NCBI GenBank assembly: GCA_038062135.1
Contig: JBBTXT010000012.1
Span: 1-38,812, forward strand
DNA: 38,812 nt
Direction: 5' to 3'
Origin: Patescibacteria group bacterium
GTDB lineage: Bacteria > Patescibacteriota > Minisyncoccia > 2-02-FULL-40-12 > GWA2-44-9
Below the pieces are notes generated by a model. The model made no database searches. It was not told where the DNA came from and saw nothing but the letters and a program-made list of their open reading frames with translations. A program made the position numbers and the translations under genes. Numbering within the stretch: the first letter of the stretch is position 1; each line of letters opens with the position of its first letter. Positions 10,804-34,112 of this stretch are shown piece by piece.

Positions 10804-10846
10804 TTGATTAAATTAGTATTTTATTGTATTATATATTTAGGAGGAG
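10804..10846 (+). promoter_or_regulatory. sigma70 promoter and SD of mini-cassette 1
   Basis: TTGATT 10804-10809, 17 nt, TATTAT 10827-10832; AGGAGGAG 10839-10846. Confidence 0.7.
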
Positions 10847-10849
10847 TAC

Positions 10850-11083
10850 ATGCGCGAGATGCTTTTCGAGGTGGCGCCGTTAGTGCTTCCGGTCTCTGGT
10901 TTCCTTCTGGGGGTCGCGCTGGTCACGCTGGTTGCGGCGATCTGCGCCCAGGACGGATCGGTTCGGAAGTTCTTGCTGGGCACGAGCCTGGTGTTCGTCG
11001 TTGCACTCTTCGTGTTTGGCTGTTTCGGTCTCGTTGTCGCAATGGCGACCGTCAAGGAGGCACTGGTCGCCGGGGGCTCGTAG
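10850..11083 (+). CDS. Small two-TM membrane protein (GC-rich mini-cassette 1)
   Basis: 77 aa with two hydrophobic helices; own promoter, SD and terminator; about 60% GC in a sampled line. Confidence 0.75.
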   Translation: MREMLFEVAPLVLPVSGFLLGVALVTLVAAICAQDGSVRKFLLGTSLVFVVALFVFGCFGLVVAMATVKEALVAGGS

Positions 11084-11097
11084 CCCCCTTTTAATTT
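11072..11097 (+). terminator. Intrinsic terminator
   Basis: GGGGGCT-cgt-AGCCCCC followed by TTTTAATTT. Confidence 0.8.
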
Positions 11098-11567
11098 CCC
11101 GAACGGTCTTTGATCGTGACCCCATTTAGATGATCTGTCTCATGCTGAAGTACTTTTGCCAGCATCCCGCGCGCCTTTATTTTAATCTTATTGCCATCAA
11201 CATCGTACCCCTTAAATTTAATTTTCTTGGGCCTGCGGATCAATCCAGTAAAGCCGGGAATTGAAAGACAACCCTCCTCCATTTCATCCGCATCATTAGA
11301 TGATTCCGTAATCTCCGGATTAGCAAAAGCATTAGGGATTTTATTTTCTTCGGCTAGTTTTTTATCAATCACAAAAAAGCGAAGGTCGCGCCCGATTTGA
11401 TTTGCGGCCAGGCCGATGCCATTGGCTTCAAGCATGACCCCATGCATTTCATCGGCTAATTCTTTTATTTCCTTACCCCCAAACCAATCATCCGGCACGT
11501 CGTTTAAGCGTTTCTTTAGTAATGGATCAGGGAGGATGGTAAGTGTTGTTTTAGATTCCTTTGCCAC
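11091..11567 (-). CDS. def: Peptide deformylase
   Basis: GIGLAANQIG, EGCLS, QHETDHLNG. Confidence 0.97.
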   Translation of the reverse strand: MAKESKTTLTILPDPLLKKRLNDVPDDWFGGKEIKELADEMHGVMLEANGIGLAANQIGRDLRFFVIDKKLAEENKIPNAFANPEITESSNDADEMEEGCLSIPGFTGLIRRPKKIKFKGYDVDGNKIKIKARGMLAKVLQHETDHLNGVTIKDRSGN

Positions 11568-11602
11568 GCCAATATTCTAGCGAAAAACCCAGATTTAGGC
11601 AA

Positions 11603-13510
11603 TTAAACTGCGCTTCTTGGATCGGGTTCTATATACCAAGTTGTCGGGACGTATTTCAAAATAGTATCTAATCGCATGTCGGGCGAAATTTTTAGAAGAA
11701 TTGCATAAGCGTATAATCCTTTTTCTCTGGCGGTAAATGCGGGATTTGCACCCATAATTTTTACAAAATCCGAAAGTTTGTCGTGCTGGATTGCTTGGTT
11801 GAGGCGGGCAAACAGCTCCCTGGCGGCAAACGACGCGCGCGAAGCCGTGTTGTGTCGGAAAGTAAGCTTCACAAGCCTACAAAACGGCGGGTATCCGAGT
11901 AATTTTCGAACCGAAAGTTCGTTTTTATAAAATTCTAGGTAATCTCTAGCAACAAAAGCTTTCAAGACCTCGTTTTCGGGGCGGAATGTCTGGATAACCA
12001 GACGTTGAGGTTGAAAATCAAGCAGGCATTCCATTAATTGAATAAATCTTTCGTCGGTGCGAAAGTCAGGGTTTGTCGCGAGTGTGTCGGCGGTGGGAAC
12101 GATGATTAAATCAAAACGTTCCGAGAATCTGTAGCTAAAAATAATCGGTGTTGCAATGATAATCGTATTTGGTTTTTTTTTAATATTGTTCCAGGCCTCG
12201 TGTTCATGTTCTTCGGTTCGGATAAGGTCGGTGTCAAAAACAGCGGTCGGAGTATTTTCAATGTTTGAACGCACAAGCAGGCGCTGGATTGATTCTTCAA
12301 TTTTTTGGCTTCCTGGCGAGCCAGACGGATAAAACTTTGTTCCTTTGCACTTCGGACACTCCTTCGGCCAATTCCTGAATGCGCCGCACTTATAACACAC
12401 AAGCATTGATTCGCCGGCATCCGAAATCTTATTAACGCGCATCGGAATACTGCAATTTTCGCAATTGGTTGTCGTTTTACATCGTTCACAAACCAGGATC
12501 GCGGAGTATCCTTTGCGGCCGGATAATATGAGAATTCTTTTTTTATTCACAACGGCTTCTATGATCAGGTTTTGGACCCGCAGGCTTAAGAGGGGAATAT
12601 CACTCCTGGATTCTTGAGTAAGGGAAATTATTTCTATAGAAGTTTTACTCTTTTCGTTTTTCTCGCTGACCAATTCGGATTGATAAGAATCGCTGACTGA
12701 AACAAATGAAGAAACAATAACCATCTGTGCGCCGGTTAGATCAGCGATTTGCCGTGCCGTTTCAACCGCTTCGTATTTTGGAGTAGTGTCCGATTTATAG
12801 CCTTCCTGGTCGGAATCAATAGCGATTATTTTTTTGAGATTGCTCCAGGGCAGGAATAATACTGAACGCGTTCCAATAACGATACTTGAATCGCCAGAGG
12901 CAATCTTTTGCCAAAGAGCGAATGACTCCGAGTTGGGCAATCTGCCGCGAGCGACGACGATATTCTTATTAAATTCTCTACACATATCTGCGAAGAAATC
13001 TATCATCTGGCGATCCGGGACAAGGATCAATGACTGACCTTCATTTCCTGAAAGACTGTCCTTAATTATTTTACGAATTGTTGTGCTATTTGCGGTTACT
13101 AACCTTGTTGGATTAATTTTGGTGGGGGAGGGGAGTTGTGTTTTTTGCCGATCCGAAAGAATATATTTTTTCTTGCCAAAAAATTGAGGCAGGACAGTTT
13201 TAAGCGCTAATCCGAGCGGGGCATAATACTGTTTTGCGAGCCATGCCGTAACTTTTAATTGGAGTGAAGTTGTTTGCGGAATTTCCGTAAAGACACCGAC
13301 CAGTTTTTTTAGTTGAAATCCAGATTTTTTAACGGAGATTTTTCTACCAGTTAAAGCTTCGGAACCGATTACGATTGCTAAAACCTCTCGTCTTCCAATG
13401 GGAGCCTTAACGACTGCTCCATGGGGCAATTGAGTATCAAAATAGTAACTTAAAACCTGCGGCGCCTGGGGCGGTAAGGAGGCTAATGGAATAACTTCAA
13501 TAATGTACAT
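11603..13510 (-). CDS. priA: Primosomal protein N' (PriA) with degenerate helicase motifs
   Basis: N-terminal 3'-binding domain, IVIGTRS..F.P, Cys-rich region with four CxxC, GYPPF; no GxGKT or DEEH. Confidence 0.85.
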   Translation of the reverse strand: MYIIEVIPLASLPPQAPQVLSYYFDTQLPHGAVVKAPIGRREVLAIVIGSEALTGRKISVKKSGFQLKKLVGVFTEIPQTTSLQLKVTAWLAKQYYAPLGLALKTVLPQFFGKKKYILSDRQKTQLPSPTKINPTRLVTANSTTIRKIIKDSLSGNEGQSLILVPDRQMIDFFADMCREFNKNIVVARGRLPNSESFALWQKIASGDSSIVIGTRSVLFLPWSNLKKIIAIDSDQEGYKSDTTPKYEAVETARQIADLTGAQMVIVSSFVSVSDSYQSELVSEKNEKSKTSIEIISLTQESRSDIPLLSLRVQNLIIEAVVNKKRILILSGRKGYSAILVCERCKTTTNCENCSIPMRVNKISDAGESMLVCYKCGAFRNWPKECPKCKGTKFYPSGSPGSQKIEESIQRLLVRSNIENTPTAVFDTDLIRTEEHEHEAWNNIKKKPNTIIIATPIIFSYRFSERFDLIIVPTADTLATNPDFRTDERFIQLMECLLDFQPQRLVIQTFRPENEVLKAFVARDYLEFYKNELSVRKLLGYPPFCRLVKLTFRHNTASRASFAARELFARLNQAIQHDKLSDFVKIMGANPAFTAREKGLYAYAILLKISPDMRLDTILKYVPTTWYIEPDPRSAV

Positions 13511-13622
13511 CCTGGCTAGATTGTACGGTAGATATAAATAAACGCGATATTGACAGCCGGCCGCCCCGCTTGTGGAATAAAGTCTGTTCGTTTTTATGGA
13601 CGTTTGGGATATAATTAACCCA

Positions 13623-14975
13623 ATGTCTGTAAGAGTAAGAATCGCCCCGAGTCCAACGGGGAATATGCATATCGGAACGGCCTACGCCGCGGCTTTTAAT
13701 TTGTTGTTTGCTCGGCATAACAACGGCCAGTTTATTATAAGAATAGAAGACACGGATGTTGAGCGGTCAAATAAGGAGTATGAAAAGAGTATTTTAGACG
13801 GCCTTGAATGGCTGGGCATCAAGTCTGACGAGCCGGTAACACGGGATAGCGAACGCTTGGCGATTTACCGTTCGTATATAGAAAAACTTTTGGAATCAGG
13901 AAAAGCTTTTTGGTGTCACCACACTAAAGCAGAATTGGAAGCTGAACAAAAAGAGCAAATGGCCAACAAACAGCCCACGCGCCATGTTTGTTCAAATAAA
14001 AATACTGAATTGGCAAAAACACCCGGAGCCGTTATTCGATTGGCGGTTGAGGATGAAGATAATATTGTTGGATTTGAAGATGTTATTCGCGGAAGAATAG
14101 AAGTCAGTCAGCGCTCGCTTGGCGACTTAAGCATTGCAAAGAGTCTTGATACTCCGCTCTACAATTTTGCGGTCGTGGTTGATGATATAGAAATGAAAAT
14201 CAGCCATGTCATCCGGGGTGAGGACCATATATCCAATACTCCCAAGCAGATACTTATTTACCAAGCATTAGGCGCTGAACTGCCAAAGTTTGCGCATATG
14301 CCGTTAATGCTCGGCACGGATCGTTCAAAATTATCTAAGCGCCATGGGGCGGTGTCGGTAGTGGAATATCAAAAAGATTACCTACCGGAGGCGTTAATGA
14401 ATTTTATCTGTTCGCTTGGCTATACTTTTTCAAAAGAAATCATGACCTTCAACGAAATGGTTGAGGAGTTTGAATTAGAAAAGATGCATAAATCCGGTGC
14501 GATTTTTGATGTTAAAAAATTAAATTGGATAAACGCGCAGTATGCCCGCACTCTCACCCTAGATAAGTTAAGAGAAGTCACGGGGATAAAAGAAATTCCT
14601 AATTCCGCGGTAACGATCATTACCGAACGCTTGGAAAAACTAAGCGAGGTCTCTAATTTTAAATATCTTTGGCAGCGCCCCGATTGTGAGCCGGGATTAT
14701 TGGCATGGAAAGAAGCACCCAATGACCAGACGGTCCGAGCCCTAACCGCAGTGAGGACAATCGTGGCGGATATTCCGGTTCTGGACGCTCCAGCCTTGCG
14801 TTCCGAGCTAGATGAACTTTCAAAAGATTACGGGGGCAGGGGAGCAGTATATTGGCCGTTTAGGGTGGCCTTAAGCGGAGAAAAAGCCTCTCCCGACCCC
14901 ACAGGCATAGCTTCTGTAATCGGCCGAGAAGAAACGCTGGAAAGAATAAACCTTGCTTTGCGCAAGCTTGCTTAG
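13623..14975 (+). CDS. gltX: Glutamate--tRNA ligase
   Basis: RVRIAPSPTG.MHIG, RIEDTD, RGEDH.SNTPKQ, KLSKR; start placed at ATG 13623, 7 nt after TATAAT. Confidence 0.96.
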   Translation: MSVRVRIAPSPTGNMHIGTAYAAAFNLLFARHNNGQFIIRIEDTDVERSNKEYEKSILDGLEWLGIKSDEPVTRDSERLAIYRSYIEKLLESGKAFWCHHTKAELEAEQKEQMANKQPTRHVCSNKNTELAKTPGAVIRLAVEDEDNIVGFEDVIRGRIEVSQRSLGDLSIAKSLDTPLYNFAVVVDDIEMKISHVIRGEDHISNTPKQILIYQALGAELPKFAHMPLMLGTDRSKLSKRHGAVSVVEYQKDYLPEALMNFICSLGYTFSKEIMTFNEMVEEFELEKMHKSGAIFDVKKLNWINAQYARTLTLDKLREVTGIKEIPNSAVTIITERLEKLSEVSNFKYLWQRPDCEPGLLAWKEAPNDQTVRALTAVRTIVADIPVLDAPALRSELDELSKDYGGRGAVYWPFRVALSGEKASPDPTGIASVIGREETLERINLALRKLA

Positions 14976-14984
14976 TTATTAATA

Positions 14985-16241
14985 ATGAATAATTTCCGAT
15001 TATTAATTCTGACCGGAACCGTGTTGGTTCTACTGGCTGTGCTTCCAGTTTCTGTTAACGCACAGACCGATTCGGAAAGAATAGAAGACCTTAAAAATCA
15101 GATAGAACTTCTTGAAGCGCAGGCCGACCAGTATCGCAACGGTATTGCAAGTGAACGTGCAAAGGCGGCATCTTTACAGCAAGAGATTAATGTCATAAAA
15201 AAAGAGATTCAGTCCCTTGAAACACAAATCGTCCTTACGGATAAAAAAATAGGTAAAACCGAATTAGAGATCACGGGCGTCAGCAATAATATTAGTAGTA
15301 CCGAGATCAATATCAATCGACAGAAAGAAAGTATCGGCCGCTTACTCCTGTTTCTTAATCAAAGGGATAGTGAAAACTTAATTGCGCTTTTGATGAAAAA
15401 TGACAGTTTTTCAGAATTTTTCAGACAGGAACAATACGCAGAAAACATAAGCACCCAGCTCGTGTCGCTCATTGGAGAACTTAAACAAGTTAAAGAAAAA
15501 CTTGCCGATGACCGAGCAGATCTCGAACAGTACCAAGGCCAGCTTGAGCAGCTTAATCAGGAACGCGAAGCCAAAAAGGTTTCTCTCGCCGGCGTAAAAT
15601 CTGGCCGCGATACCCTCTTAAAGCGAACAAAGGGGCAGGAAGCGGAATACCAGCGCATGCTTGCGGAAGTGGAAAAGAAAAAGACCGAATTCTTCACAGA
15701 GTTACAGCAACTTGAAAACAAAGTTATCGCCGGAGGCTTGTATATTGTTCGTGTAACCGCACCCAAGGTTCCCCCGAAAGGGAAAATTTTTCAATGGCCC
15801 GAGGACGGTTACGTTATTACGCAAGGATACGGTTGTACAAAGTATTCAAAATACTGCTCTCCTCGCGGCCCGTACGGTACGGCCGGCCATAACGGTATTG
15901 ATATGACAAGCGGCCGCGGTACGCCGATAAAATCAATAGGGGATGGAACCGTAATTGCAAATGGAACCAATGACGGATTCGGGAACTGGGTGGCAATCCA
16001 GCACACTAACGATCTTGTCAGCGTTTACGGGCATATGAGCTCGTTTACTTCGCGGGCAATCGTCGGCACCGCGCTCGGGGTCGGCGAAGCCATTGGTTAC
16101 GAAGGCTCTACCGGAAATTCTACCGGTTCGCACCTCCACCTAAGTTTATATAAAGATTTCTTCACGTATAAGAACGAAAAAAAGAACCAACTCTACTTTA
16201 ACTATTTTGAAGGCTCAATTAATCCTGCGAATTACCTATGA
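14985..16241 (+). CDS. Secreted coiled-coil M23 peptidase (murein hydrolase)
   Basis: Signal peptide (VNA-Q), long coiled coil, intact HNGID and HLH zinc motifs. Confidence 0.9.
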   Translation: MNNFRLLILTGTVLVLLAVLPVSVNAQTDSERIEDLKNQIELLEAQADQYRNGIASERAKAASLQQEINVIKKEIQSLETQIVLTDKKIGKTELEITGVSNNISSTEININRQKESIGRLLLFLNQRDSENLIALLMKNDSFSEFFRQEQYAENISTQLVSLIGELKQVKEKLADDRADLEQYQGQLEQLNQEREAKKVSLAGVKSGRDTLLKRTKGQEAEYQRMLAEVEKKKTEFFTELQQLENKVIAGGLYIVRVTAPKVPPKGKIFQWPEDGYVITQGYGCTKYSKYCSPRGPYGTAGHNGIDMTSGRGTPIKSIGDGTVIANGTNDGFGNWVAIQHTNDLVSVYGHMSSFTSRAIVGTALGVGEAIGYEGSTGNSTGSHLHLSLYKDFFTYKNEKKNQLYFNYFEGSINPANYL

Positions 16242-18480: not shown

Positions 18481-19223
18481 AGTACAAGAACCTTGAAGAG
18501 TTTAAAACAAGCTCCGGCTACGATGTTGATGGTCTTTGGTATCCTCGGGTAACCTCTATTATCTCCATCAAAGCTAAGCCGGAGCTTTATCGCTATTACG
18601 GCGGTCTCCCCAGCTTTGCGGCCGGTGAGGCAATCAAAGAACGCTCTGCCCTAGAGGGTCAGGCGGTTCATAGCGCCGTTGAATCTATTTTAAAGCGAGA
18701 ACACGCAGAGATCCCCCGCCATATTCAGCCGGCCGTGGATGCGTTTATTGAATTCGCCCGTCATCATCAAATCAATCCGCTTAAAATAGAAGAGCGCGTG
18801 GCAAGCAAGACTCATCGCTATGCCGGAACGATAGATGTTTTGGCGGAAGTGGACGGTGTAGTGGGTGTTTTGGACATTAAAACTTCGCAAGCTATTTATC
18901 GCGATTACGGAATGCAGACGGCGGCATACGTTGAAGCGTTTAAAGAAGACCCCAACCTTCCCCCGCTCACAAGTTGGATTTTAAGATTGGATCAAGCGCA
19001 AGTATGTAATCTGTGTGGGGCCAAAATGCGCTCCAAGGGCGGAAACACAAAAATTAGAAACAACACAAAGAGTTGGCGAAATAATTGCCAGCACGAATGG
19101 TCAGAAGTTAGAGGTGAGTATGAGTTTCAAGAAGTCCCCGATTTTGAACACAACATCAAAGCATTCCTTGGCGCTAAAGCGCTATGGGAATGGGAACACC
19201 ACGAGTTTTTAGAAAAAATTTAA
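18477..19223 (+). CDS. PD-(D/E)XK nuclease (RecB/Cas4-like) with Cys insert
   Basis: G.AVH, EE, YAGTID..LDIKT, Q..AY; CNLC...CQH; ATGA overlap with the upstream stop. Confidence 0.85.
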   Translation: MKYKNLEEFKTSSGYDVDGLWYPRVTSIISIKAKPELYRYYGGLPSFAAGEAIKERSALEGQAVHSAVESILKREHAEIPRHIQPAVDAFIEFARHHQINPLKIEERVASKTHRYAGTIDVLAEVDGVVGVLDIKTSQAIYRDYGMQTAAYVEAFKEDPNLPPLTSWILRLDQAQVCNLCGAKMRSKGGNTKIRNNTKSWRNNCQHEWSEVRGEYEFQEVPDFEHNIKAFLGAKALWEWEHHEFLEKI

Positions 19224-19241
19224 TAAAAAAGCCCGCTACAC

Positions 19242-19296
19242 TTGATTTTAAGCGGGAAAAGTGTTATGATATCTATGAACGTATTTAAGGGGGAGG
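19242..19296 (+). promoter_or_regulatory. sigma70 promoter and SD of mini-cassette 2
   Basis: TTGATT 19242-19247, 17 nt, TGtTATGAT (19265-19270); AAGGGGGAGG ending at 19296. Confidence 0.7.
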
Positions 19297-19304
19297 AACC
19301 GTAA

Positions 19305-19550
19305 ATGAAGAGTAATATCGTCTTTGTGATCCTAGTGATCCTGCTGGTTGGTGTCACTGGGAGACGTTGCCTCGTCGAGAGTAGGATGAACAAAGACGGC
19401 AAGAAGTTCGACGAGGGCTACAACGACGGGTGTGCCGACGTAAAGAGCAAGACGGGCAAGAAGGCGTTCTACGTCAAGCAAGATGGGCCGTATGTGCTCG
19501 GCTACAACGCTGGGTACAACGACTGTGTGACGGCCAGACCGAGCCGGTGA
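19305..19550 (+). CDS. Small exported protein with repeated [YF]xxGYxxG motifs (mini-cassette 2)
   Basis: 81 aa; N-terminal hydrophobic signal; FDEGYNDGC and YVLGYNAGYNDC; GC-rich codons. Confidence 0.75.
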   Translation: MKSNIVFVILVILLVGVTGRRCLVESRMNKDGKKFDEGYNDGCADVKSKTGKKAFYVKQDGPYVLGYNAGYNDCVTARPSR

Positions 19551-19554
19551 CCGG

Positions 19555-19609
19555 GATGCCGGGTGGGTGTGCGCAAAGTATCGCGCCACTCCCCGGCTAT
19601 TTAATTTTT
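19555..19609 (+). terminator. Bulged GC hairpin with T tract (homologous to 33558-33619)
   Basis: GAT-GCCGGG-T-GGGTG-t-GCGC..GCGC-CACTC-CCCGGC-TATTTAATTTTT. Confidence 0.75.
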
Positions 19610-19615
19610 ATAAAC

Positions 19616-19999
19616 TTATTGGCAATTACCTGCTAGAGTATACCCCGCTGTTTCAGCCGCCTGGGCGGTATCAAACCAAATTTGATTCTCTGGATTTATT
19701 TGTTTTGCTCCGGCGCACCAGATATGATGATACTTCTTAGAACTAGAATTTTTTGAAACGACAACGCGCGGATCCTTAGGTTGCGGAGCTTTTTGAACAA
19801 CGGTCTTATCCCCCTCTGTTTCTTGTGCTCCGGAAACGGCATTAAAAATTGAGGCATCCTGGGTTACTTTCAGGGGCGACTTTTGAACGGCCTGCATGCC
19901 GCCGAGGTTGTAGCTGATAACGGCTATCATGGCGACAGAAGTCACCATAAAAAGCTCATAGGCGTAGGATTTGACCCATTTGGCCATTTTTGCTATCAT
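19616..19999 (-). CDS. Membrane-anchored protein with Ada-like metal-binding C-terminal domain
   Basis: One TM, linker, then SK.S.KYH..WC...KQI..EN..WF.T...AE.AGY. Confidence 0.8.
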   Translation of the reverse strand: MIAKMAKWVKSYAYELFMVTSVAMIAVISYNLGGMQAVQKSPLKVTQDASIFNAVSGAQETEGDKTVVQKAPQPKDPRVVVSKNSSSKKYHHIWCAGAKQINPENQIWFDTAQAAETAGYTLAGNCQ

Positions 20000-20359: not shown

Positions 20360-20818
20360 CTAGCGGCCTTCCTTAGCGGTAATATTAACCTTTATGGTAG
20401 CGGATACTTCGTTGGTAAACTTTATCTCAACTTCATGTTCCCCGACGGTTTTGATGGCGTGTTCATGAATATGGATGGCATCCTCCGCTACCTCATACCC
20501 AGTTGATTTCTTAAGCGCTTCGGCGATCTCTTTTCGGCCTACCGCCGCAAAGAGCTTGCCGGATGAATTTGCTTTTTCCGAAAGTTCCAATACGACATCT
20601 TTGAGTTTGTCAGCAATTTCTTTAGCTTGAGCTTCCTCAATTTTTGTCTGCTCGCTCAGCTTTTTCTTTAAGTTCTCGGCTTCTTTAACCGAATTCGCGC
20701 TGGCCGCTTTAGCCATGCCGTGAGGGAGTAAATAATTGCGGGCGTAGCCGTCCGCAATTTCTTTGATATCCCCTATCTGTCCGACTCCGCGTATGTTTTT
20801 TAAAAATATAACTTTCAT
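20360..20818 (-). CDS. rplI: 50S ribosomal protein L9
   Basis: MKVIFLKNI.GVG..GDIKEIADGYARNYLLP; GKLFAAV. Confidence 0.96.
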   Translation of the reverse strand: MKVIFLKNIRGVGQIGDIKEIADGYARNYLLPHGMAKAASANSVKEAENLKKKLSEQTKIEEAQAKEIADKLKDVVLELSEKANSSGKLFAAVGRKEIAEALKKSTGYEVAEDAIHIHEHAIKTVGEHEVEIKFTNEVSATIKVNITAKEGR

Positions 20819-20832
20819 AGATAGTATCTTGA

Positions 20833-20992
20833 GCGAACGGCTGCCCCTTCTCGCCGAACTCACGGAGGCGGATTAGCTTGGCCGGACTGGTAAAATCTTG
20901 CAAGACCAGTCCGTAATCCGCCGAGTGTGTAGGCCCCATGACGCCGCCGGAGCGGCATGAGGGCTGGTCTGGCGAAAGGGATTGCCGTTCGC
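20833..20992. ncRNA. Candidate 160-nt structured RNA (6S-like or Y-shaped)
   Basis: Nested perfect helices GCGAACGGC/GCCGTTCGC, CCCTT/AAGGG, TCGCC/GGCGA, GGCGGATTA/TAATCCGCC, CGGACTGGT/ACCAGTCCG, plus a side hairpin 20933-20964. Confidence 0.55.
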
Positions 20993-26683: not shown

Positions 26684-27799
26684 TTAAAACGTTTTCAGTG
26701 CGTCCAGCAGCCGATCTGCGTGAGATTTCCAAGTAAACTGGCTAACAACGCTTGGGGCCGAATTAAGTATCTTTTCCCGGCGATCTGTGTCAGTTAGGGT
26801 ATCCCTCAATGTATTATAGATTGATTCAATGGTTATCAGTTCTGGAACCATAAAAGCATTATCTCCAAAAAGTTCATGGCTTAAGGTGTTGTCGGCCACC
26901 ACCGGAATACTTCCGTGTGCAAGCGCTTCAAGCGGCGGCAAACCAAATGCCTCCCTGCTTGAAATGTACGTTATTGCCTTGGCGTGTTTGTAGAGCGACG
27001 ATAGTTCCTTGTCTGAAACATTTTTCCGATGTATGGCGCGAGACGAACCAAGGCGATTGTTAATTTCATTGATTAGGCCATCAATAATTAGCGGCGAATA
27101 TTTATCCGTTCCAACGAATATAAAATCCAGGTTCGGAAACTCCGGCGCCAGTTTTTCAAACGCCAAGAGGGTTTCTCTAAGATGCCTGCGCGGGAACGCC
27201 TGGCCAACGAATAAAACAAAGGGTTCAGGGGTTAGGGTGTAGGGTTTAGTAGCAACAGAAGGCAAATCAACTCCGAGGTGGTTTACGGCAATCCTATCCG
27301 GATTAATTTTAAAAAGCCGAACTAGTTCCCGTTTTGATGTTTCAGAAATAGCCATAATCTTGGTTGCAAATCGGGCTGCCCAGTTGCCAAACACCCAGTA
27401 TGCCAAGCGATGATGAGGACGTTGATCAGGAGATCGCATTTCGTAATAGATATCGTCAGTTAGAAGAACGAGCGATTTTCCCCAGAAAATTATCGGCAGC
27501 ATGTAATTTGGGAAATACATCGCGTTTAGTCGGGCAAACCAAAGCCGGATCGGTAAGAAAACATAGTAATAAAGAACAAATGAGCGATATGAAAATGGCT
27601 GCCAAACTACCTCTTTAATAAATATCGGATTATCTAAGAACGGATAATCAGGAATTTTTGATTTAAAGTAAAGATAAAAGCGATGTGTCTTGGCCAATTC
27701 CGGTCGGCGCGAAATCTCTTCAAGCGTCTTTAAAATGATACGGGCGATGCCGAACGTGTCTTGCTCAATTGATTCACACTCAATACCGATTCGCTTCAT
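26684..27799 (-). CDS. Glycosyltransferase family 4 (GT-B)
   Basis: AISETSKREL, EAFGLPPLEALAHG. Confidence 0.9.
   Translation of the reverse strand: MKRIGIECESIEQDTFGIARIILKTLEEISRRPELAKTHRFYLYFKSKIPDYPFLDNPIFIKEVVWQPFSYRSFVLYYYVFLPIRLWFARLNAMYFPNYMLPIIFWGKSLVLLTDDIYYEMRSPDQRPHHRLAYWVFGNWAARFATKIMAISETSKRELVRLFKINPDRIAVNHLGVDLPSVATKPYTLTPEPFVLFVGQAFPRRHLRETLLAFEKLAPEFPNLDFIFVGTDKYSPLIIDGLINEINNRLGSSRAIHRKNVSDKELSSLYKHAKAITYISSREAFGLPPLEALAHGSIPVVADNTLSHELFGDNAFMVPELITIESIYNTLRDTLTDTDRREKILNSAPSVVSQFTWKSHADRLLDALKTF
27221..27248. repeat. Intragenic degenerate 4 x 7-bp tandem repeat
   Basis: GGGTTCA GGGGTTA GGGTGTA GGGTTTA, encoding the inter-domain linker TKPYTLTPEP. Confidence 0.55.
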
Positions 27800-28683
27800 G
27801 GTTGGAGTTTTCCAAATCTGTGTGCCCTATAATCAAATATACCGGATAAAATTGCTTGCGAAGCCTCTTTTTTTGAACGGAAGAATGCGATCTTAATTAA
27901 CTGCCCGATGATCAGGATAACCACCCAGAAAGGTAAAAATGTTTTTACGGCGTTGAAACCGTTTACGTGTGCAAATAATAAATTATTTCGCGCGTGGTAA
28001 CGCAAAAGCATTGGGTTGCCGAGTTTTTTAGTAGATGCGGAGCCGGCGTGTTCAATGATCGGTCCCTCCAAAGGTATAATCTGAAACCCCGCCTTTCTTG
28101 CCCGCATGCTAAAATCCGCGTCCTCAAAATAGAGAAAGTATCTTTCATCCCATAAACCGATTTTTTCAACCACCGAGCGATGAAACGCCACGCCTCCACC
28201 AATGGCGTATATATTTCCCGATCGTTTCCTCGCTTCAGCGAGACTGTAGATATGCGGCAAAGTTATTGAGAACCACTTGATTAATCCGGCATATGCGACA
28301 TGATCCCCCTCTTTCAAGGGGATGTTTGCAAGACAGGGCTGGGTTTTAGACAGTTCTTCTAGGAGCCTGGTTACAAAGTCCTGTTTAACCAGCGTATCGT
28401 TGTTTATGAGGGCGATCCATTCGGCGCCGTCAGCCACGGCCTGTTTGATGGCGAGATTATTGCCAGCAGAAAACCCATTATTTTCCGCGCTTGCGATAAA
28501 AGAAATATCCGGCGTTTGCGCGCTTTTGACCCATGATTCCAGAGTATTTTTATCTTCCGATTCCGAGGCATTATCAACCACATACACGCGCACGTCGTGT
28601 TCAAGCTGGTTTTTGAGAGATTCCAGAAGAGCAATCGTGCGTTCTGCGTTATTGTAATTAACCGTTATGAGTGCGAGGCGCAT
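27796..28683 (-). CDS. Glycosyltransferase family 2
   Basis: VDNAS, N.GFSAGNN, INND, FLYFEDADF. Confidence 0.9.
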   Translation of the reverse strand: MRLALITVNYNNAERTIALLESLKNQLEHDVRVYVVDNASESEDKNTLESWVKSAQTPDISFIASAENNGFSAGNNLAIKQAVADGAEWIALINNDTLVKQDFVTRLLEELSKTQPCLANIPLKEGDHVAYAGLIKWFSITLPHIYSLAEARKRSGNIYAIGGGVAFHRSVVEKIGLWDERYFLYFEDADFSMRARKAGFQIIPLEGPIIEHAGSASTKKLGNPMLLRYHARNNLLFAHVNGFNAVKTFLPFWVVILIIGQLIKIAFFRSKKEASQAILSGIFDYRAHRFGKLQP

Positions 28684-28711
28684 GCGCAGTTATTATTTAG
28701 GGGTCCCCATC

Positions 28712-29767
28712 CTAAATTATGTTTTTTATTTCTTTATTAAAATGTTCGCGGGAAAACTTTTCTGCCGTTGCCAACATTGCCGCCTTGTCGTAATTCTCCA
28801 GGTTTTTATTGAGTCGGAAAACCGCTTCAGCAAGCACTTCCGGCCGAGGATCGTTAAAGAACTCACCTGTCACTCCTGCTTGAATTATCTCGGTAGCCCC
28901 TCCTCTTTGGAGCGCCAGTACCGGAACTCCGCTGGCGATAGCTTCTACCGCCGTAAGCCCAAAATCCTCTTCCTGGGGCATAATAAAGGCCTTGGCGTGC
29001 TTATACCAGGTTACCACGGCGCTATCCGGCTGGAAACCTAAAAAGCGGATGTTTTGCTTGGCCTGCTTCTCAAGCTCTGTCCTCATTGGGCCTTCTCCTA
29101 TTATATAAAGCGGGTAACCGAGCTTATTAAACGTTTCAATAGCGACATCAACATTCTTATTCGGATAAAGGCGCGACACAATAAGATAATACGGTTCTTC
29201 AATTGGCCGCGGTTGAACAGAAGCAACATCAAGAGTAAGTGGCGGATAGATAACCTGCGACTCGCGTCCGTAATACTTTTTTATTCTTTGCTGTGCTGTT
29301 TCAGAAATGGCCACGAACTCATCAACCCTGTCTGCGGCATGGCGATCCCAAATGCGCAAAAGATGCTGGCCAATCTTTTTAAATATTCCCTGTTGGTTTT
29401 TAGCATCATCCCAGAGTTGGCGCGCCGGACTGTAGCAATAGCAGATGTGTTTCGTTCGCGGACGCGTAACCACTCCCTTAGCAAAAAACGGCGATGAAGA
29501 AATAACCACATCAAAACCGGACAAATCAAAAGACTCTATCGCAATCGGCATGAATATTGCGAGCTTTGGGTAGATGTTGAATATTCCAGGTACTTTTTGG
29601 AGGAAGCTTTTTTTTATTTCAGCTTCGGGAAGATGAGCTTGAGTAAACTCTTTCTTTGCAAACAGCGTATAGATGGGTGCTTCGGGAAAAGTTTTGTGCA
29701 GTTCAATAAGCACCCGTTCGGCGCCTCCGAGCTGAACCATCCAATCGTGAACGATAGCTATTTTCAT
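28712..29767 (-). CDS. Glycosyltransferase family 4 (mannosyltransferase-like)
   Basis: MKIAIVHDW...GGAERV, EDFGLTAVEAIASG. Confidence 0.92.
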   Translation of the reverse strand: MKIAIVHDWMVQLGGAERVLIELHKTFPEAPIYTLFAKKEFTQAHLPEAEIKKSFLQKVPGIFNIYPKLAIFMPIAIESFDLSGFDVVISSSPFFAKGVVTRPRTKHICYCYSPARQLWDDAKNQQGIFKKIGQHLLRIWDRHAADRVDEFVAISETAQQRIKKYYGRESQVIYPPLTLDVASVQPRPIEEPYYLIVSRLYPNKNVDVAIETFNKLGYPLYIIGEGPMRTELEKQAKQNIRFLGFQPDSAVVTWYKHAKAFIMPQEEDFGLTAVEAIASGVPVLALQRGGATEIIQAGVTGEFFNDPRPEVLAEAVFRLNKNLENYDKAAMLATAEKFSREHFNKEIKNII

Positions 29768-30234
29768 TGCGCAATTAAACCATCAGCAGTTGCACGAGCG
29801 TAGTTAAAGTCTTTGTAATGATTCGCGTATTTAATAATCGCATTAATACTTGCTATCTGAATTACCTCCCCTTGAGGAGTTAACCCAACACCGAAGGTGT
29901 CTTTTGGCCACTGAAACAGGTATTTATCAAAAAACTTTGTGGAAGAATCATTTATTAGGGTAATTTCTACTAATACACCGCCCCATTCGTATGCTCGTTT
30001 GTGAGAAAAATGTTTCTTAGTCACCTCTACGATGCCTGGTTGAGTCTTTATCCATTCTTCAAGAAGTGAGAAGTTTTTTGCGGGATAAATAAAATCTATG
30101 TCTTTATGCTCACGTGGAGGAATAAGAGCGTGTAATTCCTGTGCCCATCCTCCAAAAAGCCATACATTTATACCAGCACTTTTGAGCTGCTCATATACCC
30201 CAAAAAGGAATTCGGAATTATTAGTTGTTCCCAT
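29764..30234 (-). CDS. Nucleotidyltransferase, ANT(2'')/LinA-like family
   Basis: WLFGGWA.......R.HKDIDF motif; start ATG 30234 just after the mreB stop. Confidence 0.72.
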   Translation of the reverse strand: MGTTNNSEFLFGVYEQLKSAGINVWLFGGWAQELHALIPPREHKDIDFIYPAKNFSLLEEWIKTQPGIVEVTKKHFSHKRAYEWGGVLVEITLINDSSTKFFDKYLFQWPKDTFGVGLTPQGEVIQIASINAIIKYANHYKDFNYARATADGLIAQ

Positions 30235-30239
30235 CAGGC

Positions 30240-31244
30240 TTATCTTTTCGCAATAACGTTTTTCTTGTAGACGTCTAAGTTTTCTAAAACAATGCCGGTT
30301 CCGCGGGCTACACAAAAGAGCGGATCATCAGCAATACGGGCAGGTACGCCGGTAACTTTAGTGATGAGCTGGTCTATGTTGCGTAATAACGCTCCGCCGC
30401 CCGAAATTACGATGCCCCGATCCATAATATCCGAGCAAAGCTCCGGCGGGGTTACTTCAAGCACGCTTTTAATAATCTGTATGATTTCGCGCAAGTGTTC
30501 GCCAAGGGCTTCGGTAATTTCGTTAGAGGTAATCTCAACCGTTTTAGGCAGTCCGGTTGCAAGGTCGCGCCCACGGACGCTTATCTTTTCTTCGGCCGCC
30601 TGTTTTACAGCGCTACCAATGTTTATTTTAATGATTTCAGCAGTGCGTTCGCCGATAGCAAGGCCATGCTTCTTTTTAGTGTAGTCAACAATTGCGGCAT
30701 CCAATTTGTTGCCGCCGATGCGCACTGAAGACCACGAAACAATGCCGCCCAAAGAAACAACAGCTAGTTCGGTTGTGCCCCCGCCGATGTTGAGAATCAT
30801 ACTCCCCACCGGATTGTTAATTGGAATCTTTGCGCCGATGGCGGCGAGGACTGGTTCTTTAACAAGGTAAACGGCCTTAGCGCCCGCATCAAGCGTTGAT
30901 TCAATGACCGCGCGTTTTTCGGTTGAAGTAATTCCGGCAGGAACGGAGATTAAAACTTCAGGCTTAAAAAAATCAAATACCCCCGCGCCCTTTCTTATAA
31001 AATACTTAAGCATTGCGCCGGTGACGCGGTAGTCCGCGATGGCGCCGTCCACCAAGGGGCGGGACACAATAATACTATCCGGCGTGCGGCCGATCATCTC
31101 TTTTGCCTCGTTGCCTACCGCGAGGATTTTATTGTCTAAAACGGAGATGGCGACAACCGAAGGCTCATTCAAAATAATCCCCTTTTTCGGGACGAAGACT
31201 ACGGTGTTGGTAGTACCTAAATCAATGCCTATTTTCTTAGCCAT
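30240..31244 (-). CDS. mreB: Rod shape-determining protein MreB
   Basis: IGIDLGT.N, NEPSVVA, IGGGTTE, TPPEL..DI...GI. Confidence 0.96.
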   Translation of the reverse strand: MAKKIGIDLGTTNTVVFVPKKGIILNEPSVVAISVLDNKILAVGNEAKEMIGRTPDSIIVSRPLVDGAIADYRVTGAMLKYFIRKGAGVFDFFKPEVLISVPAGITSTEKRAVIESTLDAGAKAVYLVKEPVLAAIGAKIPINNPVGSMILNIGGGTTELAVVSLGGIVSWSSVRIGGNKLDAAIVDYTKKKHGLAIGERTAEIIKINIGSAVKQAAEEKISVRGRDLATGLPKTVEITSNEITEALGEHLREIIQIIKSVLEVTPPELCSDIMDRGIVISGGGALLRNIDQLITKVTGVPARIADDPLFCVARGTGIVLENLDVYKKNVIAKR

Positions 31245-31305
31245 ACGCTCATAGACTCTAGCCCGAACCTGGATTTTTTACAAGGTAATCTGTATTATGG
31301 ATTAC

Positions 31306-32142
31306 ATGACCAAAGGAACTCGCAGGTTTGCATTCTACATTGCCGTTATTGTTTTCATCGGCGCCACCTATATAGCGATTTTATATGCCCAAGGCTACAA
31401 GTATAGCGCCCAGGAGCACCGCTTCATCAGAACCGGCGCGATTAGCCTGAATGCCAACGCCGACGCTAAGGTGTTTGTGGATGATGAACTTTCCGGAACA
31501 ACCTCGTTTTTAACCAACCGATTTAGTGTAGACGGCCTTCTGCCCGGCCAGTATTCAATTCGCCTTCAGCGCGACAACTACTCAAGCTGGCAAAAAGTCC
31601 CAACGGTGCAAGAGGGGTTTGTAACAGATTTTCCAAAAGTTTTGATTTTGCCTTTAGACGATGAAAACCTTGCCAAGCTCGCTAGCGAGGCGGCCGAAAT
31701 ATTTGCATCCAAGCCTACTCCAACGCCTACCTTAACCGTAAAACCGACCCCTACACCCAAGGCGACAATTAACCCCACCGCAACACCTTCTCCCACTCCA
31801 ACCGAACCTTTTGTTTTGAAAAATAAAGTCCTGACCTGGCAAGAGCAAGGCGGTGAACCGCAGGAATTAGCCAAAAATGTTGCTGGATTCATAGTCTCCG
31901 AAAGCAACAAAAAAATGGCCTGGTGGACATTTAATAACGAACTTTATGTAATGTGGCTTGCCGACACCGACTATCAGCCCGCCAAAAAGAAGGGCGATCG
32001 CGAACTGGTTACCCGCTTTGCAACTAGCATCAATGATATCGCCTGGTTCCGAGGTGATGATCAAGTAATCCTCTCATTCAAAACCGGCTACCGCATCGTA
32101 GAAATCGATACCCGCGGAGGCGTGAATATTATTAAGATCTAA
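31306..32142 (+). CDS. Membrane-anchored PEGA-like domain protein with Pro/Thr linker
   Basis: TM then YAQGY, TGAI, A.VFVD, LLPGQY.I.L....Y..W.K; PT linker; start probably ATG 31306. Confidence 0.8.
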   Translation: MTKGTRRFAFYIAVIVFIGATYIAILYAQGYKYSAQEHRFIRTGAISLNANADAKVFVDDELSGTTSFLTNRFSVDGLLPGQYSIRLQRDNYSSWQKVPTVQEGFVTDFPKVLILPLDDENLAKLASEAAEIFASKPTPTPTLTVKPTPTPKATINPTATPSPTPTEPFVLKNKVLTWQEQGGEPQELAKNVAGFIVSESNKKMAWWTFNNELYVMWLADTDYQPAKKKGDRELVTRFATSINDIAWFRGDDQVILSFKTGYRIVEIDTRGGVNIIKI

Positions 32143-32165
32143 CGGCTGGCTTGACTGACTTGGAC

Positions 32166-32238
32166 GGGGTCCTGCCCCTCCCACCCCATACGTGCTCAAA
32201 AGACTGCGCGCGTATGGGGTCCCCGTGAGGGCCACCCC
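32166..32238 (+). other. Irregular GC-rich hairpin between convergent genes at the island edge
   Basis: GGGGT..GCCCCTC..ACCCCATACGTGC / GCGCGTATGGGGT..GAGGGC.ACCCC. Confidence 0.6.
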
Positions 32239-32260
32239 TATGCGACCATAAAGTATGTTT

Positions 32261-32716
32261 CTAATCCTTCAAGGTGACTGTTAGGGGCGTACTATAAGTC
32301 TCAGTCAAACCCTTACTTTTAGGGTCTAACGCCTTAATGTTAAAGGAGTAGTCCCCTTCCTTCTGTATACCAAGAGCATTTATGTTGACAACAAAACGAT
32401 TACGCAACATACCCGAAGGAATAATCAACTCTTTCGTCATTTTGCTAACTTCCTTATTGTTAGAGTCATTAAAGCTTACTTCTGCAATAAACTTAATTTC
32501 GTTTTCAATAGAGCCCTTATCCCACAAAGTTACTAGTTCAAACTTTATGGGAACGATTTTATAACCTTTTTTATTTTCAGGAAGGCTGTTGAAAAATTCT
32601 CTCTTGATATTCAGTTGATCAGTTATCCCGAATAAGCTAATATTATTACTTTTTTGGTCAGTGCTGGTCCCAGAACAAAGAATAGCCCAACGTAATTTTA
32701 ACTTTTCTTTTAACAT
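32261..32716 (-). CDS. Predicted all-beta hypothetical protein (DUF6941-like by recall), third gene of the TA operon
   Basis: WAILC....D..SNNISLFGI.DQL; alternating beta pattern; EGDYSFNI; 4 nt from the antitoxin stop. Confidence 0.7.
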   Translation of the reverse strand: MLKEKLKLRWAILCSGTSTDQKSNNISLFGITDQLNIKREFFNSLPENKKGYKIVPIKFELVTLWDKGSIENEIKFIAEVSFNDSNNKEVSKMTKELIIPSGMLRNRFVVNINALGIQKEGDYSFNIKALDPKSKGLTETYSTPLTVTLKD

Positions 32717-32720
32717 GTTT

Positions 32721-33143
32721 TTAATGAGTTAAATAATCTGATGATGAGTGAAGCCACGGCACTTCTTGGGAGTTATCAAGTGTTGATAATGCCAGATCAC
32801 TATACGAACTTTCGACAGCGGTATTGTTTACAGTAAGCTTACTATCTAAACAACCTAGTGTAGGGGCTATTGCCTCTGTTTTCAACGCCTTAGAAATTCT
32901 TTCAAACATTGCAAGACTGTCAATCTTGCCACGTTCTATGCGCGCTATATTTGGTTGACTAGTCCCAATAAGATCAGCGAGTTCTTCTTGTGTATAACCC
33001 TTCAAAATACGTGCTTTTGCCACATTGCGACCGGTTTGATATCGTATAGAAGGGTTTTCATATAGCTCACGAAAAGCCTCGTCTTGCATCAATTCTTCGT
33101 GCAACTCTTCTGGTGTTACAAATATTAACTTTTTCTTTTTCAT
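32721..33143 (-). CDS. XRE/HTH antitoxin (HigA-like) with a C-terminal extension of about 45 aa
   Basis: ARILKGYTQEELADLIGTSQPNIARIERG; low-complexity S/T/D/N tail. Confidence 0.85.
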   Translation of the reverse strand: MKKKKLIFVTPEELHEELMQDEAFRELYENPSIRYQTGRNVAKARILKGYTQEELADLIGTSQPNIARIERGKIDSLAMFERISKALKTEAIAPTLGCLDSKLTVNNTAVESSYSDLALSTLDNSQEVPWLHSSSDYLTH

Positions 33144-33149
33144 ATGTTT

Positions 33150-33467
33150 TTATGTTTTCAAATTTTGGATCTCTCTGGCGATATTTTCCGATTTCTTAAA
33201 CTCTCTCTGTTCCTGGTTCAAATCTTTTTTTATGAACACCTTTACGAGGTATACTGTCTCATCCTTGACCGTAGTAACCAATCTGTATCTACCCTGTCTT
33301 GTTTTATAAATATCATCACATGATCTTATGGGTTTTAGACAATGTGGAATTAACTGCTCCCGACTCTGTCCCCGAATATCTTCTATGAGATCTTTAAGAA
33401 GCCTTTGGTTTTTGGCATCCTGACTTATTATAAATTCCGAAGCCTCTTTTAATAATATAACTCTCAT
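33150..33467 (-). CDS. RelE/HigB (Gp49-like) toxin
   Basis: 105 aa; LKPI....IYKTR.GRYRL; YLVKVFIKK...EF..S..IA; toxin-first gene order. Confidence 0.8.
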   Translation of the reverse strand: MRVILLKEASEFIISQDAKNQRLLKDLIEDIRGQSREQLIPHCLKPIRSCDDIYKTRQGRYRLVTTVKDETVYLVKVFIKKDLNQEQREFKKSENIAREIQNLKT

Positions 33468-33489
33468 TTAGCGTATGTGTATCCATAGA

Positions 33490-33528
33490 ATATATCTTAT
33501 ATGATATATCAACGGTTTTAAATGTCAA
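33490..33528 (-). promoter_or_regulatory. TA operon promoter with palindromic operator
   Basis: Minus strand TTGACA-16-TATCAT; ATATATC-N6-GATATAT (33490-33509) overlaps the -10 and start site. Confidence 0.7.
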
Positions 33529-33557
33529 TAGTCCTAATACTTTTATTATACTCTTCT

Positions 33558-33619
33558 CAAAAATAAAAAAGTGCCTGGGAGCGCGACGCGTTCTGTATCG
33601 CGTGCGCTCACCAGGCATC
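33558..33619 (-). terminator. Bulged GC hairpin with T tract (homologous to 19555-19609)
   Basis: Minus strand GAT-GCCTGG-T-GAGCGC-ACGCG..CGCGT-c-GCGCTC-CCAGGC-ACTTTTTTATTTTT. Confidence 0.78.
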
Positions 33620-33621
33620 TC

Positions 33622-33975
33622 TCACTCGAAGGTGGCTCCGTGGCGAGTCAGCTTGAAGACCGAGCCTGTCTTCATCGCTTCCCTGACATCCTGCGCGTGG
33701 ATGATGATCGTCTCGGTCGGGGCTAGCGGATCGTCCGCGGGGGTGACCAAACAGGAGGTGGCGTACTCGTTGACCTTGTTGATCTTGCAGCCCCACACTC
33801 GGTAGCTCATCCCTTTTTCGCCAGGCTTGGCCTTACCGAGGCCGTAACGGAAGCCCTCGTCGTAGGCGGCCTTCTGGGCACCGCCGAGGTCGAAGCGACC
33901 GGTCGTCATGCAACCCGCCAGGAAGCCGAGAACGATCGAAGTGACCACCAGAATGTTCAGAACAGTCTTGTTCAC
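33622..33975 (-). CDS. Small putative lipoprotein (GC-rich mini-cassette 3)
   Basis: 117 aa; GTG start with SD AAGGGGGA; signal peptide ending in lipobox LAGC; YDEGFRYG motif. Confidence 0.78.
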   Translation of the reverse strand: MNKTVLNILVVTSIVLGFLAGCMTTGRFDLGGAQKAAYDEGFRYGLGKAKPGEKGMSYRVWGCKINKVNEYATSCLVTPADDPLAPTETIIIHAQDVREAMKTGSVFKLTRHGATFE

Positions 33976-33996
33976 AACATCCCCCTTGAACTACTG

Positions 33997-34112
33997 CTCG
34001 GTATGTTGCCGAGACATGGGAAAAACAACCTAATATTCAGATTGTCTTTCCAGTATCTCGGAGTTCTTAATGATCTTTCAGTATTATAACATTTATAGTG
34101 TACTTTTGTCAA
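33997..34112 (-). promoter_or_regulatory. Consensus promoter and structured 5' leader of mini-cassette 3
   Basis: TTGACA (34107-34112), 18 nt, TGtTATAAT (34083-34088); leader hairpin 34009-34061 with 4 G-U pairs. Confidence 0.72.

Follow-up and report, generated by a model that had tools for sequence, protein, structure and literature searches.

Shine–Dalgarno-led, GC-rich single-gene units in a Patescibacteria genome with SD-less core genes, and their possible lateral circulation

Why should a bacterial contig whose ordinary genes start without a Shine–Dalgarno (SD) sequence carry three short, GC-rich genes that each have a strong one? The question is raised by 38,812 nucleotides of a Patescibacteria group bacterium (JBBTXT010000012.1, assembly GCA_038062135.1), which were analysed over their whole length and are called the window here. 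The window is an entire contig (C12) of an assembly of 434 kb in 29 contigs that is 89.6% complete with a contamination estimate of 0.21%; the best RpoA matches (up to 76%) are to Candidatus Yanofskybacteria and other Patescibacteria records, and the public runs holding the window sequence are labelled as groundwater metagenome, with no RNA run listed among them. The core genes in the window are hrcA-grpE-dnaK-dnaJ, efp, def-fmt, priA, gltX, a glycosyltransferase cluster and mreB, together with the ribosomal operon rpsM-rpsK-rpsD-rpoA-rplQ-rplM-rpsI. Among them lie three units, U1, U2 and U3, each with a promoter or promoter-like site, an SD, one small open reading frame (ORF) and an intrinsic terminator (Table 1). 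About 20–30 genes in the genome share a promoter, an SD, an ORF rich in GC at the third codon positions (GC3) and a strong terminator, roughly 5–7% of its genes. We give an even chance to the explanation that U1–U3 are laterally circulating accessory modules which resemble phage morons and are translated in the bacterium through SD:anti-SD pairing.

All of the elements that the first-pass annotation of this DNA had described for the three units were found in the sequence at the positions claimed, including a separate GC hairpin terminator for each, and the observation as a whole is confirmed and is larger in extent than first noted. The GC excess is clear: the ORFs have a GC content of 0.62 (U1), 0.54 (U2) and 0.60 (U3), their GC3 values (Table 1) compare with 0.30–0.57 in the other 42 ORFs of the window, and the 200-nt GC maxima of the units (0.62–0.64) are at or above the 99th percentile of the genome (0.615). 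The SD is restricted to the three units, as the other 42 ORFs have none. The promoters had been described as near-consensus, which is true of U3; the sites of U1 and U2 occur at chance density, with 33 matches of 9/12 in the window against 27.5 ± 5.4 and 29.5 ± 5.7 in shuffled sequences. Similarly, the units form a 'family' in architecture and composition and not in sequence: the three proteins share no similarity, and the class is thus one of architecture. Based on their sequences, U1 (a peptide with two transmembrane, TM, segments), U2 (a Cys-containing exported peptide) and U3 (a lipoprotein) are predicted to be envelope accessory proteins. The neighbours of the units are def and fmt, a PD-(D/E)XK nuclease gene and rpsI, with no prophage context. 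No transposase or integrase families were found among the 45 window ORFs (the first-pass annotation had noted none adjacent to the units), and an Rfam scan at the gathering cut-off and a tRNA scan of the window gave no match.

Table 1. Positions of the elements of U1, U2 and U3 in the window.
Unit	Element	Positions	Strand	Remarks
U1	Promoter-like site TTGATT-17-TATTAT	10804..10832	+	9/12 match
U1	Shine–Dalgarno AGGAGGAG	10839..10846	+	3 nt before ATG at 10850
U1	ORF, 77 aa, two hydrophobic segments (predicted two-TM)	10850..11083	+	GC3 0.78
U1	Intrinsic terminator, 7-bp GC hairpin and T-run	11072..11097	+	-14.2 kcal/mol
U2	Promoter-like site TTGATT-17-TATGAT, TG before -10	19242..19270	+	9/12 match
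U2	Shine–Dalgarno AAGGGGGAGG	19288..19297	+	
U2	ORF, 81 aa, N-terminal hydrophobic anchor or signal (predicted)	19305..19550	+	GC3 0.76
U2	Intrinsic terminator, long imperfect GC hairpin and T-run	19554..19609	+	-29.6 kcal/mol, z -3.66
U3	Promoter TTGACA-18-TATAAT, extended -10 TG	34083..34112	-	12/12 match
U3	5' leader, ~90 nt, small hairpin	33988..34076	-	native-like GC 0.40
U3	Shine–Dalgarno AAGGGGGA	33980..33987	-	4 nt before GTG start
U3	ORF, 117 aa, hydrophobic N-terminus ending L-A-G-C	33622..33975	-	GC3 0.81
U3	Intrinsic terminator, long GC hairpin and T-run	33556..33621	-	-38.2 kcal/mol, z -7.62

A genome-wide scan, one of the checks that the first-pass annotation had proposed, brought further genes of this kind to light. 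GC3 is bimodal among the 398 ORFs that reach 100 aa, the main peak being at 0.45–0.55 and a small one near 0.8; 381 of these ORFs have a GC3 below 0.65 and 12 have a GC3 of at least 0.70. An SD of at least 5 nt at the longest start is present in 26 of the 381 ordinary genes (6.8%), which equals the 6.7% found at 5000 random sites, so SD use and high GC3 are not common among ordinary genes, as the refuting condition set in the first-pass annotation would have required. The 12 GC3-rich genes have such an SD at six of their longest starts, or at 11 when starts within 30 codons are allowed. With short ORFs included, 46 have a GC3 of at least 0.70 and coding periodicity, and 21 of these (by a count of the listing) have an SD of at least 5 nt. 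The reverse scan gave 36 ORFs outside the ordinary genes with an SD of at least 6 nt and a GC3 of 0.47–0.96, some of them overlapping frames. Nearly all of the class genes that were inspected singly repeat the layout of U1–U3. The design is also present in relatives, whose genomes carry G numbers here (the analysed genome is G000). In two genomes of the same family, ORFs that combine an SD of at least 5 nt with a GC3 exceeding the mean by at least 3 sd number 29 (G015, GC 0.52) and 14 (G006, GC 0.42), with 400 kb examined in each; a stricter filter for the two genomes (at least 50 aa, SD of at least 6 nt) passes 24 ORFs, 22 of which have no Pfam match above the curated cut-off, the others being a TraR/DksA finger and a type IV secretion system pilin domain. 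The proposal of a coherent class of autonomous single-gene units with translation signals other than those of core genes therefore holds genome-wide and in relatives.

The class differs from the ordinary genes in its transcription signals as well. Promoters with a match of at least 10/12 lie upstream of 8 of 19 class genes and 16 of 354 ordinary genes (at least 11/12: 5 of 19 and 3 of 354), and terminators of -12 kcal/mol or stronger follow 15 of 19 class genes and 32 of 120 ordinary genes (medians of -24.7 and -5.2 kcal/mol), a contrast that is inflated because most ordinary genes are internal to operons. The native operons of hrcA and infA have promoters of 11–12/12, and the promoter type is therefore the organism's own. 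Codon usage in the class is far from that of the bulk and of native highly expressed genes (CTG 2.71 versus 0.77, ATC 2.66 versus 0.99 and GAG 1.47 versus 0.57), and the amino-acid usage is displaced in the direction expected from a GC-rich background (less I and K, more A, R, V and W). The shift in relative synonymous codon usage correlates with that of native highly expressed genes at only 0.20, on which ground translational selection was rejected as the cause of the high GC3. N-terminal hydrophobic segments are weakly enriched (9 of 22 class proteins and 97 of 381 ordinary ones), and we base no claim on this. An all-versus-all BLASTP of 23 class proteins showed no relation (best E-value of 0.04), and comparison of the genome with itself showed no DNA similarity among the units. 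The largest GC-rich island of the genome is a three-gene cluster at C10:10807-12991 (-), which encodes proteins of 386, 235 and 105 aa with GC3 values of 0.63, 0.82 and 0.89, each gene with an SD; its 200-nt GC maximum is 0.71.

The ribosomal-protein genes are SD-less in the 12 closest RpoA-match loci (RpoA at least 59% identical), including a Yanofskybacteria record of 59% GC. A check of the 16S rRNA, which had also been proposed, gave an intact anti-SD in all seven of the same-family 16S genes recovered, with the 3' end GGATCACCTCCTTTCT. The start regions of class genes are more strongly folded than those of core genes, with -8.8 versus -6.2 kcal/mol from -25 to +25 (p = 5e-4) and -7.7 versus -4.6 kcal/mol from +1 to +40 (p = 1.5e-5), which fits the idea that class genes need the SD and core genes do not. 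A genome of the same order, G039 (L007), has GGATCACTTACTTACT at the 16S 3' end instead of GGATCACCTCCTTTCT, so that the anti-SD core is changed; this agrees with the anti-SD loss in part of the Parcubacteria that is given in the portion of PMC9297842 used here. In 228 kb of G039 there are seven ORFs with a GC3 of at least 0.70, four of them with an SD of at least 5 nt, which is fewer than in the other genomes, the numbers being too small to decide. The 5-mer AGTAA is about fourfold enriched upstream of G039 genes, as are other A/T-rich 5-mers.

In the lateral-module explanation, an accessory gene pool would circulate laterally and land between core genes. Part of the pool would come from GC-rich bacteria outside the candidate phyla radiation (CPR) and part would move within the CPR, including the target genes of diversity-generating retroelements (DGRs). 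The genes would be expressed in the bacterium itself, where core mRNAs would initiate on A/U-rich, weakly folded, SD-less leaders and the GC-rich ORFs, with their more folded starts, would rely on the SD:anti-SD pairing that the 16S rRNA of the lineage still offers. The class has the atypical composition and codon usage of xenologues, and it has their patchiness: homologues of U3 were found in 0 of 40 relatives, significant matches to U2 in 0 of 400 genomes at class level, any dcd (dCTP deaminase) gene in 4 of 40 relatives, and a family named after contig C23 in 7 of the 400 genomes and in 0 of 10 genomes of the same family. One DksA-type gene (type B, below), syntenic in three genera, is a counter-example to the patchiness. 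The dcd gene has its closest homologues in a distant taxon, the C23 family does not, and U1–U3 are orphans. The class dcd product is 72–80% identical to Dcd of metagenome-assembled genomes of Acidobacteriota, Chloroflexota, Alphaproteobacteria and Gemmatimonadota (among the 80 best loci); by sequence, this gene clearly groups with non-CPR phyla. It lies at C7:20913-21467 and is followed by tmk without a terminator hairpin between them. This dcd and a 36% identical one in G007 (L283) both follow a gene with a similar end (...GIEVK and ...GIDVK before the stop codon), suggesting in situ replacement or a recurrent landing site.

Few of the class proteins can be named. Only two of 24 have a Pfam match above the curated cut-off (DksA/TraR zinc finger and dCTP deaminase); a CHAP match in one scan was below it. 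PHROGs matched four of the 24 scanned, none of them U1–U3, and IMG/VR had no match to the two larger class proteins searched. Two larger class members are the target genes of DGRs. The DGR on C23 (1042-2658) has its target at 2017-2658(-), a variable repeat at ~2021-2139 and a template repeat at ~1563-1681, and 24 of the 30 mismatches between the repeats are at template adenines; bAvd is at 1172-1519 and the contig has no reverse transcriptase (RT), but carries 129 nt with 88% identity to the 5' region of the RT on C9. The DGR on C9 (1047-3494) has its target at 1047-1658, its template repeat at 1994-2105 and its RT at 2502-3494, with 87.5% identity between variable and template repeats over 112 nt. 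A second reverse transcriptase at C16:1543-2493 has a GC3 of 0.64 and the SD AAGGAGGT. The C23-family homologues that were examined in five other genomes repeat the order promoter, leader, SD, terminator, and several of the five resemble one another in parts of the leader and of the 3' untranslated region (UTR). DksA/TraR genes occur at least once in 38 of 40 relatives and are of two kinds, one native-like and SD-less and the other SD-led with a GC3 of 0.72–0.83 (type B). The DksA-like class protein had just one weak phage match, with 42% identity over 48% of its length.

U1 lies entirely antisense within the 288-nt spacer between def and fmt. Its promoter-like site overlaps the A/T-rich leader of fmt on the opposite strand, its terminator abuts the def stop codon, and among its three frames GC3 is highest in the annotated one. 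The searches gave no credible homologue, only weak TM-like matches inside larger ORFs; Atlas scores for U1 were below 0.9. In all of the 24 relatives examined def and fmt are adjacent and co-oriented; the gap between them (approximate, as it was taken from aligned ends) is less than 100 nt, or near-abutting, in 14, 100–200 nt in four and larger in six. Four of the 24 have a different antisense SD-led small gene in this spacer, with its own promoter and terminator, the products being hydrophobic peptides in G006, G029 and G032 (82 + 57 aa, 77 aa and 48 aa) and a soluble 98-aa protein in G031. The small spacer proteins of five genomes, U1 included, have no mutual similarity (all z < 1.1).

The U2 protein has three conserved Cys residues and a repeated G-Y-N-x-G motif. 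It has a single homologue, P0003, with 66% identity and with Cys22, Cys43 and Cys74 invariant; as the homologue keeps the three cysteines, we argue that U2 is a real protein. The closest matches in the 400 genomes at class level had E-values of just 0.003–0.006, and there was no match in IMG/VR and none in JGI metagenome contigs with an alignment query. None of 200 shuffled sequences folds as stably as the U2 terminator. On the minus strand, a short and weakly folded hairpin (-9.1 kcal/mol, z -1.6) followed by a T-run (19214-19258) overlaps the U2 promoter. The minus-strand gene at 19616-19999 could have its terminator here, and would then have a 3' UTR of ~360 nt antisense to all of U2.

The U3 promoter directly follows the terminator hairpin of rpsI (34118-34143). 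A lipobox consists of an N-terminal hydrophobic segment and then a motif that ends in Cys, and the U3 translation reads ...IVLGFLAGC... near its N-terminus, with the Cys at residue 22, so that U3 fits the description of a lipoprotein as far as a reading of the translation can tell. No homologue of U3 was found in the 40 relatives, in 5.8 billion clusters, in 1.84 billion representatives or by phage and plasmid tblastn, and a single-sequence AlphaFold model is poor, with a predicted local distance difference test score (pLDDT) of 58.7. The region after the rpsI terminator is variable among relatives and has no U3 homologue there. U3 is adjoined by an AT-rich island of three genes (32261-33530, -; GC 0.33–0.39, GC3 0.30–0.39) with a promoter of its own (TTGACA-16-TATCAT at 33528-33501), which encodes hyp105, an XRE-type helix-turn-helix protein and a weak DUF6941 match. 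With this island the variable region after rpsI has a second insertion, whose composition is skewed in the opposite direction.

A number of observations weigh against the lateral-module explanation, and several of them speak for a native class. All named homologues of the C23 family belong to the Patescibacteria, so that no GC-rich donor is identified for it, and no donor, phage or plasmid matches were found for U1–U3. No contig from four DNA runs had a joint that skips a cassette, so that no empty-site variant was seen in these runs, where coverage holes prove nothing. A search of metagenome contigs anchored on priA, which was to supply close relatives and through them empty sites, also found none. 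The 16S gene of the organism itself is absent from the assembly and the anti-SD evidence is that of same-family genomes. According to the part of Tsurumaki et al. (2022; PMC9297842) used here, just 48% of Parcubacteria have the anti-SD and its loss overlaps the group that lacks uL1; uL1 was not found in G000, nor in G015, G006 or G039, and bS21 was not found in G000. The leaders and promoters are native in composition: in 12 units with a predicted promoter of at least 9/12 the averages are GC 0.26 for promoters and 0.44 for leaders and GC3 0.82 for ORFs, with an average GC of 0.46 in the non-genic DNA of the genome. This weakens the case for fresh import, because a module from a genome of 60–65% GC should bring GC-richer leaders. 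The DGR targets are SD-led with a GC3 of 0.83, but their cognate Avd (0.49) and RT (0.48) are native-like. Four genomes from three genera (G012, G024, G004 and G009) have the GC3-rich DksA type B between ftsK and recA; the flanking proteins are 80–93% identical there and the flanking genes have a GC3 of 0.31–0.64. The DksA gene keeps its promoter (9–11/12) and its SD, and its terminator is still a double hairpin (-23 to -37 kcal/mol). The design can thus be inherited vertically, with a composition that is held rather than ameliorating. In the C23 family the GC3 (0.58–0.85) is above that of the flanks at five of six loci, G000 included, even at 30–50% protein identity, and equals it in L291. 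These leaders, DGR targets, DksA genes and C23-family loci favour a native, selectively maintained, SD-dependent expression class of monocistronic GC3-rich genes (DksA, DGR targets and envelope proteins), for which the lineage would keep its anti-SD and in which a separate mode of initiation and composition might serve, for example, condition-specific translation or mRNA stability. So do the anti-SD kept in all seven family members although their core genes do not use it, and the many tRNAs with CNN anticodons in the genome. Yet the codon preferences of the class do not extend those of highly expressed genes and its amino acids are shifted too; most members are orphans with a patchy distribution or none, dcd has its affinities outside the CPR, the GC3 of SD-led ORFs outside the core forms the spread that amelioration would give, and G039 still has its four SD-led GC3-rich ORFs with an altered anti-SD. 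We consider such a native class, the main rival, possible, if on the unlikely side; it and the lateral-module explanation are not mutually exclusive. A broader form of it is doubtful in our judgement: uL1- and bS21-lacking Parcubacteria would run two initiation regimes, one without the SD for the core genome and one with it for monocistronic GC3-rich genes (surface and envelope proteins, DGR variable proteins and a DksA-type regulator), and would actively maintain the foreign-looking coding composition of the latter over genus-level time, by selection or biased gene conversion. If it were true, the anti-SD would be conserved for the SD channel, and initiation mechanism and codon usage would mark the class out as a regulon and not just the debris of transfer.

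The remaining alternatives are less probable. U1 alone might be a module like type I toxin–antitoxin systems or an excludon, under mutual control with a def-fmt read-through transcript. Its predicted two-TM product, its wholly antisense position and the hydrophobic spacer peptides of three relatives are in keeping with this, but these peptides are unrelated in sequence, U1 exceeds typical type I toxins in length and has two TM segments, there is no evident sequestration of its SD, def and fmt abut in 14 of the 24 relatives, and neither U2 nor U3 fits; we regard this model as improbable. Non-autonomous mobile cassettes (miniature inverted-repeat transposable elements, MITEs, integron cassettes or elements derived from insertion sequences, IS) moved by a recombinase in trans were suggested by the first-pass annotation, and would account for units that are dispersed, compact and sharply bounded between core genes and for a def-fmt spacer and a post-rpsI region that are filled differently across genomes. 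This suggestion was not borne out, and we think it very improbable: the units lack terminal inverted repeats and target duplications, apart from AT-rich matches at chance level, and show no mutual DNA similarity, they are not integron-like because each has a promoter of its own and stands outside any array, no transposase was found among the window ORFs, and PF00589 (Phage_integrase, the family of tyrosine integrases that includes XerC/D-type recombinases) had no match in the 89.6%-complete assembly. The idea that the genes are effectors, delivered as mRNA or DNA and read by the SD-using ribosomes of a host, also came with the first-pass annotation. It has in its favour the contrast between the SD-led GC-rich units and the SD-less core, and the few such ORFs that persist in G039 despite its altered anti-SD. 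The intact anti-SD of the family argues against it, as do the promoter type, which is that of native operons, and the cytoplasmic members of the class (dcd abutting tmk, a DksA-like regulator and DGR targets that are mutagenized by the cell's own retroelement); the predicted signal peptides, lipobox and TM segments are in keeping with export by the cell that makes the proteins, and a transfer mechanism is not evident. We give this idea almost no credence, and hardly more can be said for a chimeric assembly or for contaminating DNA of a GC-rich organism, for which the contrast in composition alone would speak. The units lie inside contigs between core genes with exact boundaries, and contigs from the runs of two studies cover U2 and its upstream flank. 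One contig of the first study spans U2 with both flanks, one of the second crosses the upstream boundary of U2 into the neighbouring gene, and in one contig the sequence runs from inside U3 into rpsI. The design also recurs in independently assembled relatives, and the contamination estimate for the assembly argues in the same direction.

The lateral-module explanation can be set beside known systems. A phage moron, as described in the part of Cumby et al. (2012; PMC3594210) on which we draw, is an independent transcription unit between conserved phage genes. Measured against that part of the paper, the units are alike in being single genes with their own promoter and terminator and a GC content unlike that of their neighbours, in lying between conserved genes and being absent from the same site in relatives, and in often encoding a lipoprotein or small membrane protein. 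They differ from morons in that they lie in a cellular chromosome without prophage context, with PHROGs matches for only a few of the class proteins; their mode of initiation sets them apart from the host genes, and vertical retention across genera is seen for at least one of them.

Horizontally acquired islets and ORFans start with an atypical composition and then ameliorate. The atypical GC3 and codon usage of the class, its patchiness, the foreign match of dcd and the continuum of GC3 from 0.47 to 0.96 are all like this; unlike it, the anomaly of the class stops at the ORF ends, and it persists in the DksA type B and C23 families over long divergence. In the Bacteroidota translation is SD-less, the anti-SD is retained and rpsU is an exceptional SD-led gene. 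The present family likewise has SD-less core genes, a 16S rRNA with its anti-SD kept and a small set of genes with a strong SD, but this set consists of ~20–30 GC3-rich, mostly orphan monocistronic genes and not of a ribosomal autoregulatory gene. U1 resembles type I toxin–antitoxin systems, by sequence alone, as a gene for a small hydrophobic peptide that is overlapped in antisense; it departs from them in its size and its two TM segments, and no dedicated small RNA or SD-sequestering fold was seen. Integron cassettes are promoterless ORFs that carry an attC site and stand in an array beside intI. Compact single-ORF units with diverse products are similar to these, but the units have their own promoters and terminators, are dispersed and have no attC-like end and no integrase. 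MITEs and IS-derived elements differ from the units by their terminal inverted repeats, target-site duplications and similar copies.

The listings and abstracts searched in the literature included no paper describing a class of SD-led GC-rich genes in the CPR. These bacteria have tiny genomes with few recognizable regulators, and their mode of gene expression is little understood. An SD, a high GC3, a separate promoter and a separate terminator together make a simple signature for accessory, surface or host-interaction genes, and the class offers a reason for keeping the anti-SD in a lineage where core genes ignore it. It also raises the question of what holds the GC3 at ~0.8 in single genes over genus-level time in genomes of 41–52% GC. 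For annotation, a gene caller that has learned from the SD-less core may overlook such small genes or call them wrongly.

A further GC-rich feature of the window is a non-coding element of ~150 nt at 20830-20990 (-), directly upstream of the likely true start of rplI (ATG near 20818). It is present in three copies, the others being at C18:3389-3532 and C6:8175-8311 of G000, and has no Rfam match, even at E <= 1. The consensus fold has 53 pairs, with compensatory changes in 22 of them among just three copies, and the element may be an undescribed structured RNA or cis-regulatory leader.

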